Part shown: one piece after another, positions 8,757 through 12,801 of the stretch
Layout of the letters: each line of letters starts with the position of its first letter
Numbering within the stretch: the first letter of the stretch is position 1
Assembly (NCBI RefSeq): GCF_947563725.1
Contig: NC_079159.1
Location: 100,113,559 to 100,177,558, forward strand
DNA: 64,000 nucleotides
DNA from: Argiope bruennichi
Taxonomy: Eukaryota
Reading direction: 5' to 3'
Notes under the pieces: model-generated
Seen by the model: the letters and a program-made list of their open reading frames with translations, nothing else
What the model was told of the DNA's origin: nothing
The model's database searches: none
Position numbers and translations under genes: made by a program

Positions 8757-11501
8757 TTATTTCCATGCAGCTCTGAGTGTTTTGCGAGCTGCTAATCTTT
8801 TTGTAGTATATGACAAGGCTACCAATCCTAATAGCACTACACTAATTAAATAATGATCAAAGTCATCTTTAAGAATGTCAAATGTTTTTGATGGAGTCAC
8901 TCGAGTATAAAATAAATCAAGTCCATGAACAAAAACTAAACAAGTTGATTCTAGGCCAGAAGGTGCAGTGACTATGTCTCGAACTCTTGAAACACTTTGA
9001 TTATAATTTATGATACCTTCAGTCAAGATAGGAAGTTCTGGAATGTAAGGAATGAGACCTTCTTCTCGATGTTCTGGCAAAGGTGTAATAGGACGTCTTG
9101 GATCCAAGAAAGTTTTAGGCAGTTCCAAAATTCCACCAGAAGGTAATGCCATTAAAAGATGCTTGTTGGTCATCCCTCTTTCTGTAACTGTATCTGCCAT
9201 TGTCACAATAGTTGATGGGAATATAAATGTTTGATGCTCTACAAGAGGTAAAGGAGGTGGTGCAAATGAAGAGAATGCTGTCGTATTACTTTGATATTTT
9301 CCTTCAAATAATTCAATTGATGAGATTTCAATTCTTCTAGACTTATCATTGTGATAACTGTAAATAATCCAGTTTTCTGAATGAACAACATGTATAGGAC
9401 TCTTGCATCTTTTGTGTGATGCCGAGTAAACAACAAGACCAGTAACAATATCAATGAGATAAAGGTTGCAGAAAGTCTTTTGAATTGAGTCATTGCCTTC
9501 AGTAAAAACAGCAGCCAAATTTGGATTTAAATATTTATACAAAACACTTCTATCACCCATGACTCTTCCTTGCGAATGCACATGCTCTGAAGGCCTCTTA
9601 GTAGCTACATTAATAATTGGCTGGGGTAATTTCATTTTCCATGCTTCAACAGCTTTCAGACTATTAGTTTGATCTGCAGTAAGGGAGTAACCTATCAAGG
9701 TACCAGATTCAGGTTCAGCTGTGAACATAAAATGTGAATTTTTATGTCTCGATATATCATGAGATTCTGGATAAACATGAACTCTTAGATCTGAATCTAA
9801 TAAAAGAATTTCTCTCAAATAATAGCTGAGTGTTCCAACAGGCATTACCTGTATTACAGTATATGGTAAAACTTTTGATTCTATAGTAATACCTGTAATA
9901 GGATCAAAAGAATATATGCGACTTTGCTGAGAATGAGCATGCCTTCCCACAGCAGTGCAAACAGGAGGATAAGGAAAATGAGCTGTTGTTCTTTGGACAA
10001 ATAATGGAAAATAAAGTTTCTCTTTCAAGCTAAAAGGAGATAAATTTTTTTCAAAATGGCTCCAAATAATTAGTCCAGACAGGTTATCAATTCCAAATGC
10101 TTTTCCTGGTTTGGTAATAACAACGATTATCTTGTGCAATCCAAATGTATCACGAGTTAGACTTTTCTTATCTATACCAACATGATCACTATCACCTTTA
10201 AAACCAACAAGGACACTTAATAAATATGACTGTAATAAATAAACTTGGGACTTTAATCTGTTCAAAAACATGGTAAGAGGATTGGCATCAGGTTGTCCAA
10301 ATTCTTGTTCAATGTTTGCATCTGTATCTGACAGTGGTAAATCTAATATTTCCGATGATACAATACTAGATAAAGCCTCTTCACGAGTCCACACCAATCT
10401 TCCCTGTTGATGAATCACAAGAACTGAATGGTCTTCAAATAACAGCAACATCTTATAGCTAACACCATGATCTTTTTTAATATATGGAAGGATAAAGAAT
10501 AGTTCCAAGTCCCCATGCTCTTCTGACAAAGAAAATGTTCCATCTAAATTTTCTAATTCTTTTTTAGATTCAATATCTAAAGCTTTTATTTTGTAAGTAT
10601 TGCTAGATTGTACCAAAGTAAACATCACTAACTTATCTTCTATAATAGTTGATGTAATTTTACTTATGCTAGGTAAAAGTTTAACAAGTTTTATCCCTGG
10701 AGGATGAATTTGTAACAGTATTCCACTATCTTCAAGCTGTAGAGCCATTAATGGTTTGTCTGATGATCCTTGATATGGCAAAGCCACTGCTTTCATTTCT
10801 TTTAGATTTTGAGTTATTTCAATACCTAGATTTCCTAATGTAACAGGTATAAAGGCACCACTATCTTTAATAGAAAGTAGCTGTAAACTCTTCTTATTGC
10901 TCTCAATGCAGACAAAATAGTTACTGGAAATAAAACTACAATTAGAAGATTTATCATACCATGGTGAAGAGATTATATTCGATGTTTTTAAGGATCCTCG
11001 TGTGTAACTATATACAGAAACTTTGGTGTGCTGCATAGGTAACATTTCAATTCTAATTATTTCTTTAGTTGAAGAGTTAACTTGAAAGTAAAGTAAAGCA
11101 GCATTATTGGGTGTATTAGGAAAAGAAGTTTCCCATAATAAAACGCCTGTATTTGCATCCCAACTTCTAATAAATTGTCCTCCACCACTAACTGTTACCA
11201 AATCACCGTTCTCAGAGACAGCATCAATTACACCCGCGTCTCCATTTTCTAAAACTTGTCGCCATATAATACTACCCGTGCGTACGCTTAAACAGGCCAA
11301 AACATTTTCCTCTGTTGCAACTATAAATTTCTGTGAACCACCTATGGCAGGATCAATATAGGCAAATTTCACTTTACCAATATATTGCTGCCTCCAATCA
11401 AATTTTCCAACTTGATCTTCATAAAGAGAACTAACAATTGCAATTAATATGAAAATAATAGTCAAGTTAATGAAGAAACTAAAATTACCAGATAATGTCA
11501 T
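8757..11501 (-). CDS. EMC1: ER membrane protein complex subunit 1 (EMC1/KIAA0090 orthologue), 914 aa, single exon
   Basis: The uninterrupted 2745-nt ORF begins with a signal peptide and then the conserved EMC1 start [20 protein letters not shown] (human [20 protein letters not shown]). Internal conserved blocks include [94 protein letters not shown] and [15 protein letters not shown]. A C-terminal TM helix precedes ...[14 protein letters not shown]. Confidence 0.92.
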   Translation of the reverse strand: [914 protein letters not shown]

Positions 11502-12144
11502 AGTTGGGATTTCAACGTGATTCTTTGTAATACACTAAGAATTTTAACAAAATATAGCATTTAAGTAAACCATGCAAAATACTCTGTTTCAAAAAATCAT
11601 AATCCAAATATATCTGGATAATACTTAATTGATTATACCTAATTTTCAACTTGCCGATTCTGTTCCTGTACTATATTATGTTGAACTACGGTCACAGTTA
11701 AATAAAATATCATAAAAGCAAAACTTAAATAAAATATGCAATATTCTGTAAATCTGTGATTGATGAAGAACATTATTTTCTATGTTTGAATTATAAAAAT
11801 TTAATTTAGTTTTTTTATTCTATAGCAGTGTACTTGCATAATTTTGAAATGCATTGTGGTTCTATCATCATAGTTATTAAACAATAAAATATCATTTTAA
11901 AAACACTTTTTAATATTATTTTTTGACTGCATATTTTTTGTTTCAGAGCTCTTCGAAAAAATTGCATAGCATGAATATTCATGGTAGATGTAACTGTATA
12001 AATCACTATTTTAGTATTCTGGTTAGGAAAATAAAAGTGAGTGGCAACAGTGCACATTTCCTGTTTTTCTCCATTTCAAGAATTGCACGTTTTTCTTAAC
12101 TTACGGGGAATCCAATTTCGTGTTTACAATAGATTAAAGAAATC
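11502..12144. promoter_or_regulatory. Putative shared or bidirectional promoter region between divergent EMC1 (minus) and NACA (plus)
   Basis: The two start codons sit 643 bp apart in head-to-head orientation. No internal splice signals are evident. This is an inference from the gene arrangement only. Confidence 0.35.
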
Positions 12145-12801
12145 ATGCCTCAAATGAGTGTGTCTGAAGTATTAGCCGTCGACGAAGTCGAAAAAACCGA
12201 AATTGATCGTAAGCAATCAGACACTGAATCTGATAGTGATGATTCTTCTCCAGAAGCTGATGAAGGCGATGCTGCCCAAAGTGCCGCCACAAGCCAAATG
12301 GCTCAGATGGCGGGTTTAAGTGAAGAATTGGTGAGCAAAGCGAAACAAAGTCGAGGAGAAAAGAAGGCGAGAAAATTGATGTCCAAATTGGGATTGAAGC
12401 AAGTCCAAGGTGTCACCCGAGTTACCATCCGTAAGTCCAAAAACATTTTGTTCGTGATCACTAAGCCTGATGTCTACAAAAGCCCGGCTGGAGATACTTA
12501 TATCGTTTTCGGAGAAGCTAAAATCGAAGATTTGAGTCAACAAGCTCAGATGGCTGCTGCTGAAAAATTCAAAGCACCGGAATCGGCTGGCCTTGGCGGA
12601 GATGGTCCTTCTCAAACCATAGCATCTCAGCCTATAGAAGAAGAATCTGAAGAAGAGGGTGAAATTGACGATACTGGTGTGGAAGGCAAGGATATTGAGC
12701 TTGTCATGTCCCAAGCAAATGTTTCTCGCAGTAAAGCGATCAAAGCTCTTCGAAATAACAATAATGATATTGTTAATGCCATTATGGAATTGACTATGTA
12801 A
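12145..12801 (+). CDS. NACA: Nascent polypeptide-associated complex subunit alpha (NAC-alpha), 218 aa, single exon
   Basis: An acidic, Ser-rich N-terminus is followed by the NAC domain [77 protein letters not shown]. This is near-identical to human NACA. The C-terminal UBA motif is [36 protein letters not shown]. An AATAAA sits about 135 bp downstream. Confidence 0.92.

Follow-up and report, generated by a model that had tools for sequence, protein, structure and literature searches.

Intronless, divergently arranged EMC1 and NACA genes of Argiope bruennichi: a gene structure shared by the entelegyne spiders sampled and likely of RNA-mediated origin

Introduction

Retrogenes which have replaced their parental genes, the so-called orphan retrogenes, form a documented class, to which human CHMP1B, RNF113A and MARS2 as well as amphioxus SYCP1 belong, and retrocopies have been found to be able to recruit the promoters of head-to-head neighbours (PMC3548309, PMC4772013, PMC5803294). 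A functional retrogene of NACA, called NACA2, has been described in primates (PMC1251493). In this article we analyse a window of 64,000 nucleotides from the spider Argiope bruennichi (NCBI RefSeq assembly GCF_947563725.1, contig NC_079159.1, positions 100,113,559 to 100,177,558 of the forward strand), where EMC1 and NACA are divergent neighbours and each has a coding sequence (CDS) consisting of a single open reading frame (ORF). A first-pass annotation of this DNA had suggested that the two genes were functional retrogenes, and that they might be driven from one compact shared promoter.

On the basis of a comparison with other spiders and with two outgroups we consider it probable, taking all parts of the explanation jointly, that EMC1 and NACA are ancient retrogene replacements which were made neighbours later by rearrangement, and that they are the working single-copy orthologues of the spider.

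The spider genes resemble the orphan retrogenes in several respects: both are single-exon genes and apparently the only copy, while their outgroup orthologues are multi-exon; they are housekeeping genes under strong purifying selection; and the head-to-head placement is one documented way by which retrocopies gain expression. They differ from the described examples in that two unrelated essential genes are concerned, which now face each other, in that the events are too old for a visible tail, duplication or parental relic, and in that the relocation is read only from the differing neighbours. As in the case of NACA2, the same parent family yielded an intronless functional copy; NACA2, however, is young and coexists with the parental NACA, whereas the spider gene is ancient and apparently the sole NACA. 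Compared with bidirectional gene pairs, in which a promoter of less than 1 kb is shared, the spider pair is likewise divergent, with spacers of 643 bp in Argiope, 650 bp in Larinioides and 440 bp in Parasteatoda, and it is kept across crown Araneoidea. Unlike such pairs it would have been assembled from an earlier RPL23A-NACA and (at least in Uloborus) WD40-EMC1 pair, and only its NACA-side module is deeply conserved in spiders. No prior account of intronless EMC1 or NACA in spiders was found in literature searches.

EMC1 and NACA are complete single-exon genes

The protein encoded by the larger ORF matched the Pfam families EMC1_C (3.8e-73) and Beta-prop_EMC1_N, the N-terminal propeller (3.8e-45), and it matched the human EMC1 structure (6ww7_A) at 6e-203 in three segments covering query residues 20-914, the signal-peptide region included. 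An EMC1 protein was defined by an N-terminal beta-propeller and an EMC1_C domain with a C-terminal membrane anchor, collinear with EMC1 structures; in the Argiope protein the N-terminal beta-propeller and EMC1_C are both present and collinear with the solved structures. Larinioides sclopetarius had the closest EMC1 among the matches listed (93% identity). The smaller ORF encodes a NAC domain (Pfam NAC, 3.2e-24) followed by a C-terminal UBA domain (UBA_HYPK, 6.2e-12), which is the domain order of NACA; its product matched human NACA from ribosome complexes at 1e-74 over residues 22-218 and is 100% identical to the Argiope bruennichi protein P0121.

The coordinates of the two frames (Table 1), their divergent orientation and the length of the ATG-to-ATG spacer (11502-12144), all given in the first-pass annotation, were confirmed by the ORF listing, and the same layout of the locus was found on chromosome CM027190.1 of the Argiope bruennichi assembly GCA_015342795.1. 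At a G+C content of about 30%, chance cannot account for uninterrupted reading frames as long as these (2.7 kb and 0.66 kb).

Putative 3' untranslated regions (UTRs) could be proposed for both genes. The first AATAAA or ATTAAA on the EMC1 sense strand occurs 617 nt past the stop codon, and the presumed EMC1 3' UTR shows 81% identity to Larinioides against a shuffled-sequence baseline of about 68%. The corresponding region of NACA is 86.5% identical to Larinioides, and the counterpart of the NACA 3' end, ATTAAAGAGTATTAT, directly precedes the poly(A) tail in a spider complementary DNA (cDNA) contig, L010.

The loss of introns is common to the spiders compared

Orthologous loci were compared in four other spiders (Larinioides, Parasteatoda, Uloborus and Stegodyphus) and in two outgroups, the scorpion Centruroides vittatus and the tick Ixodes scapularis; the five spider species represent four families, all of them within Entelegynae. 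EMC1 and NACA are single-exon genes in each of the other spiders as well. They stand head to head in Larinioides (Araneidae) and Parasteatoda (Theridiidae). In Uloborus (Uloboridae) they lie 97 Mb apart on the same chromosome, EMC1 facing a multi-exon WD40 gene and NACA facing a multi-exon RPL23A, and in Stegodyphus (Eresidae) they are on different contigs, NACA again facing RPL23A. All ten spider CDSs are open from ATG to stop and translate directly to proteins, without internal stops.

The outgroup genes are built differently: EMC1 of the scorpion extends over 41.9 kb and is divided into at least 18 exon pieces, NACA of the scorpion consists of several pieces spanning 9.7 kb, and tick NACA is split over 12 kb. 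Since all three are split, introns are the earlier state in these genes, in agreement with the first-pass annotation. Complete intron loss is common to all entelegyne spiders sampled, and the loss dates to after the split of scorpions and spiders and before the entelegyne radiation.

Purifying selection on both genes is strong. The ratio of nonsynonymous to synonymous substitution rates (dN/dS) between Argiope and Larinioides is 0.077 for EMC1 (synonymous rate, dS, 0.47) and 0.011 for NACA (dS 0.38); across the comparisons it is 0.08-0.10 for EMC1 and 0.01-0.03 for NACA, and when Argiope is compared with the three other families, dS reaches about 2 or is saturated. With both ORFs intact in five species and dN/dS far below 1, the view that EMC1 and NACA are complete, functional and intronless was upheld. 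According to the protein listings there is one EMC1 and one NACA per annotated spider among the best 120 matches of each search, and the copies look like replacements rather than the supplements to parental genes which had also been considered.

The intronless structure alone would fit recent retrogenes of the Argiope lineage as well, supplementing intron-bearing parents elsewhere in the genome. Such an origin has next to nothing in its favour beyond this: the same single-exon genes occupy orthologous positions in four spider families, at saturated or nearly saturated dS, the purifying selection is strong, no second spider copy was among the matches listed, and neither a poly(A) tail nor a target-site duplication was found. 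A recent or lineage-specific event, as the first-pass annotation had it, is thus not borne out by the five spiders. It had also been stated there that an intronless structure common to the relatives, together with conserved synteny, would point to ancestral intron loss; the structure is indeed shared, and the synteny is conserved only in part.

The route of the intron loss

All coding introns of EMC1 and NACA are gone, the 5'-most ones included. Nineteen exon junctions of scorpion EMC1 were tested by alignment to the Argiope ORF, and at 18 of them the alignment has no gap. So precise an absence of introns is what a spliced messenger RNA (mRNA) template would be expected to leave. Even the 5'-most intron of NACA, located in the 5' UTR, seems to be gone in spiders, because in the polyadenylated cDNA contig an 88-nt NACA leader runs straight into the ATG, and in the scorpion an acceptor-like ttttacag, recognised from the sequence only, stands 31 nt before the ATG. 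A suspected 5'-UTR intron of Argiope NACA (donor AAG/GTGAGT at 12035-12042, acceptor at about 12133) was rejected: Larinioides has GGGAGT at the donor position, the donor is part of a conserved leader block, and the spider cDNA is collinear from this block to the ATG.

Stepwise genomic deletion of individual introns over time would need at least 17 exact removals, leaving no indels at those 18 junctions. The neighbouring genes of the window retain many long introns and no intermediate state was seen in any spider examined, thus this process is very improbable.

Precise intron absence is predicted equally if a full-length cDNA had recombined with the resident gene and erased all introns without any move, the neighbours having changed later. 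The lack of a poly(A) tail and of a target-site duplication would agree with such an in-situ loss, and the loci are clearly rearranged within spiders, gene order being fluid. The spider genes share with reverse transcriptase-mediated intron loss by cDNA recombination the precise excision, which implies an RNA template. cDNA-mediated conversion usually strips the 3' introns and keeps the 5' ones. In the spiders, unlike this, the loss is complete and not 3'-biased, since all coding introns (at least 17 in EMC1) and apparently the 5'-UTR intron of NACA are gone, and the neighbourhood differs from that of the outgroups. The scorpion has EMC1 flanked by an Era-type GTPase gene and by chordin, and NACA beside a G-alpha gene, and tick NACA adjoins an XLF-like gene; for either gene, these scorpion and tick neighbours are absent from all five spider loci. 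Neither a kept ancestral locus nor retained 5'-most introns, towards which in-situ cDNA-mediated loss tends, were thus observed, and we regard this route as rather unlikely.

Since the introns are precisely absent and the neighbours are unlike those of the outgroups, the results favour, without proving, ancient retrogene replacement over in-situ loss. As in orphan retrogenes, an intronless CDS with precise intron absence stands beside multi-exon outgroup orthologues. An RNA-mediated origin of EMC1 and NACA is likely. Of the retroposition suggested in the first-pass annotation this part stands as the best mechanism, on account of the precise intron absence; the recent date does not, the structure being shared across four families with dS of about 2 or saturated.

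Each of the two genes would have lost all of its introns in one step, via a processed-mRNA intermediate, in the spider lineage, at some time between its separation from the scorpions and the divergence of the entelegyne families. The likeliest route would be retroposition to a new locus near the 5' end of an expressed gene, followed by the loss of the intron-bearing parent, a step which we infer and which would give the 'orphan' state. The events in EMC1 and NACA would have been independent of each other.

Several points weigh against retrogene replacement. No sense-strand poly(A) remnant was found up to 1.5 kb from either stop codon, no A-rich stretch follows the NACA 3' UTR in the genome, and no credible target-site duplication was seen at EMC1 or NACA; the retrogene hallmarks which the first-pass annotation had proposed to look for are thus absent at both genes, and no direct mark of retroposition survives. 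The parental copy was judged to be missing from protein-database listings, not from a whole-genome search. The loss of the scorpion and tick neighbours could reflect hundreds of millions of years of rearrangement, which makes it weak evidence, and the comparison covered entelegyne spiders only. Events of this age are not expected to have left a poly(A) tract or a target-site duplication, dS against the other families being about 2 or saturated.

Several candidates for such marks were rejected. The 13-mer AAAAAATCATAAT flanks EMC1 (8598 and 11591), but its downstream copy lacks a preceding A-tract, and chance alone would give about four matches of this kind; the remaining direct repeats either have one copy inside the CDS or are not conserved in Larinioides. 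An 18-base homopolymer at about 7662-7682, approximately 1.07 kb beyond the EMC1 stop codon, reads T on the EMC1 sense strand and was discarded as its poly(A) tail; it could be the tail of a plus-strand element. At scorpion ACSF4, taken as an empty site, neither EMC1 nor a WD40 gene was found up to 10 kb from the 3' end, and an informative neighbour was missing as well, which makes it a weakly informative test.

History of the head-to-head arrangement

The adjacency of NACA and EMC1 was found in Argiope, Larinioides and Parasteatoda, that is, in Araneidae and Theridiidae, and it is absent in Uloboridae and Eresidae. Because Theridiidae is sister to the remaining araneoids (PMC7947752), Araneidae and Theridiidae span crown Araneoidea. 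NACA stands head to head with RPL23A in Uloborus (L008:1-10654) and Stegodyphus (L009:1-10657), with about 510 bp and 1280 bp respectively between the ATGs, and EMC1 lies tail to tail beside ACSF4 wherever the downstream neighbour was identified (Argiope, Parasteatoda and Uloborus). As both genes are intronless in both arrangements, intron loss and adjacency are separate events.

The picture is that of two blocks, ACSF4-EMC1 and NACA-RPL23A, joined by rearrangement. The head-to-head adjacency would have arisen later than the intron loss, by chromosomal rearrangement, probably in the ancestor of Araneoidea, and NACA would have carried its own leader and promoter into it. A single inversion between the Uloborus-like and the Argiope-like gene orders was considered and rejected: the counterpart of the Uloborus WD40 gene is not beside RPL23A in the window, and the gene downstream of NACA is PNPase in Uloborus and MVP in Argiope. 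Because of these differences more than one rearrangement is needed.

In a phylogeny based on coding data Eresidae groups with Araneoidea, and Uloboridae is placed outside (PMC7947752); on this tree the RPL23A-NACA order is ancestral and NACA-EMC1 is derived. When non-exonic data were added, Araneoidea became sister to a clade of Eresidae, the UDOH families and the RTA clade (PMC7947752). The polarity of the adjacency therefore depends on the tree and is ambiguous if Araneoidea is sister to all others, which tells against a later joining in the same manner as the points listed above do against replacement. NACA-EMC1 might instead be the ancestral entelegyne order, for example if one retrocopy landed by the other, and it would have been broken later toward Eresidae and Uloboridae. 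On the non-exonic tree (PMC7947752) one change on either branch fits equally, and Argiope still has RPL23A no more than 48 kb away from NACA. On the coding-data tree (PMC7947752), however, the RPL23A-NACA order of Stegodyphus and Uloborus would be ancestral, and the EMC1-ACSF4 block and the NACA-RPL23A linkage act as two separate units. An ancestral NACA-EMC1 order seems unlikely on balance, though it deserves consideration, and the later joining of two blocks is preferred here.

NACA is a member of a divergent pair in the tick and in every spider examined, with differing partners; the multi-exon tick gene (L012:1-22015) stands head to head, at about 800 bp, with an XLF/NHEJ1-like gene. No gene was called within 10 kb upstream of scorpion NACA. 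The Era-type GTPase gene of Centruroides vittatus (L003:8559-9689), a single exon of 376 codons, lies 312 bp upstream of EMC1, head to head with it.

The spacer between EMC1 and NACA

The two genes are divergent and start less than 1 kb apart, as is required of a pair with a bidirectional promoter: beside the distance between the ATGs, there are about 540 bp from the EMC1 ATG to a conserved NACA leader block. This block, situated about 80-105 nt upstream of the NACA start codon, shows 88-94% identity to Larinioides, and it is kept in all five spiders, whether NACA faces EMC1 or RPL23A. Every spider NACA locus contains its motif a single time, 79-110 nt upstream of the ATG; the rest of the window and the other loci lack it. 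The number expected in the window is 0.00, and as the motif was drawn from the same sequences, information comes from its uniqueness alone. The core of the block (TTTCCTGTT...GCACGTTT) lies within the 88-nt leader of the polyadenylated spider cDNA, therefore the block is NACA's own start-site or leader region. The motif is absent from the scorpion and tick loci, so that an origin of the leader from the parental mRNA is not demonstrable.

On the other side, the EMC1-proximal part of the spacer has 70-85% identity between Argiope and Larinioides in 40-nt windows; no conservation of it is recognisable in Parasteatoda, Uloborus or Stegodyphus. The observed/expected ratio of CpG peaks at 1.11 over the NACA 5' end and stays at about 0.7 through the NACA CDS (12000-12800); most of the DNA around and most of the EMC1 gene body have values of 0-0.4, and near the EMC1 5' end the ratio is about 0.5-0.75. 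This contrast may reflect different germline methylation of the two genes.

Given that NACA has a leader block of its own which all five spiders retain, the spacer has the appearance of two promoter-proximal modules, set back to back with an unconstrained middle between them, rather than of one promoter which evolved to co-regulate linked genes. The first-pass annotation had speculated on a single compact shared promoter, serving the co-regulation of two products acting at the interface of the ribosome and the endoplasmic reticulum; this idea is not backed by the comparison, because the NACA-EMC1 arrangement is limited to Araneoidea, the leader block is conserved in both arrangements and the middle of the spacer is unconstrained.

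Neighbouring genes and other features of the window

Table 1. Features of the Argiope bruennichi window (positions within the 64,000 nucleotides)
Feature	Position	Strand	Remarks
EMC1 CDS	8757-11501	minus	single ORF, 914 codons, ATG to stop
NACA CDS	12145-12801	plus	single ORF, 218 codons
Putative EMC1 3' UTR	8115-8756	minus	first poly(A) signal ATTAAA at about 8134-8139
Putative NACA 3' UTR	12802-12962	plus	AATAAA at 12938-12943
EMC1-proximal spacer	11502-11750	minus	presumed EMC1 leader and core promoter
Diverged spacer middle	11757-11900		about 47-56% identity to Larinioides, lowest in the spacer
NACA leader/start-site block	12037-12103	plus	TGGCAACAGTGCACATTTCCTGTTTTTCTCCATT...GCACGTTTTT
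ACSF4/AASDH-like gene, last coding exon	1353-1712	plus	multi-exon gene, tail to tail with EMC1
Major vault protein (MVP) gene	25373-45080	plus	14 coding pieces
RPL23A exons	60245-61783	plus	48 kb downstream of NACA, same orientation as NACA

The intron-rich character of the surroundings, noticed already in the first-pass annotation, was substantiated. The MVP gene was recognised from 14 separate stop-free plus-strand segments, which join as one collinear match to MVP residues 10-851, in accordance with the 14 coding exons given earlier. RPL23A is split as well, with an L23eN exon at 60245-60610 (Pfam 9e-24), another exon at 61586-61783 and at least three coding pieces found in all, five having been given earlier. 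ACSF4, also a split gene, was identified by a Pfam match of its last coding exon (Beta-prop_ACSF4, 9.6e-39) and by tblastn, in which this exon matched its counterparts in Parasteatoda and Uloborus; the relative position of the gene is the same in the loci of these two species (L002 and L005).

Upstream of the last ACSF4 exon, on the minus strand (100-613), there is a Tc1/mariner transposase-like remnant with a ...DNARPH... motif, whose match to Pfam DDE_3 is weak (E = 0.003, under the curated cut-off). An (AT)64 microsatellite (30038-30165) is located in an MVP intron, between two coding segments. A zone of higher G+C at 50-58 kb, between MVP and RPL23A, contains a near-perfect inverted repeat (50130-50637) with 226-nt arms, 97% complementary and 56 nt apart, possibly representing a transposon-like element. 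At 51614-52131 a 134-nt sequence is directly repeated, its copies being 96% identical and 384 nt apart, with a 42-nt tandem array (51809-51905) between them. Rfam and tRNA scans of the whole window gave no matches.

Discussion

The analysis corrects a tempting reading of this locus: the intronless pair did not arise by recent retroposition, nor was it, in all probability, built for co-regulation as a unit. The intronless state is an old change of gene structure, common to spiders, and the adjacency has a separate history; altogether it is a tidy but fairly ordinary genome history. For the annotation of spider genomes it follows that single-exon models of EMC1 and NACA are to be taken as true orthologues, not as pseudogenes.

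A further-reaching possibility may be put forward tentatively. Along the stem of the spiders, or at any rate of the entelegynes, each retrocopy might have replaced outright an essential housekeeping gene with high expression and survived by landing within about 0.5 kb of the start of an active housekeeping gene, NACA by RPL23A and EMC1 by the WD40 gene, Araneoidea then having joined the two as a bidirectional pair. RPL23A encodes uL23, a ribosomal protein of the tunnel exit, and NAC is reported to dock nearby. If this were true, landing by RPL23A would have given NACA a ribosomal-protein-like expression at once.

Two candidates, one of them a gene which once had about 20 exons, are added by EMC1 and NACA to the small class of essential genes seemingly replaced by processed copies. 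The NACA leader block, found beside two different partners, represents a small natural experiment on the assembly of head-to-head promoters. If the two replacements were part of a wider burst, spiders would offer a natural system for the takeover of essential functions by retrocopies.

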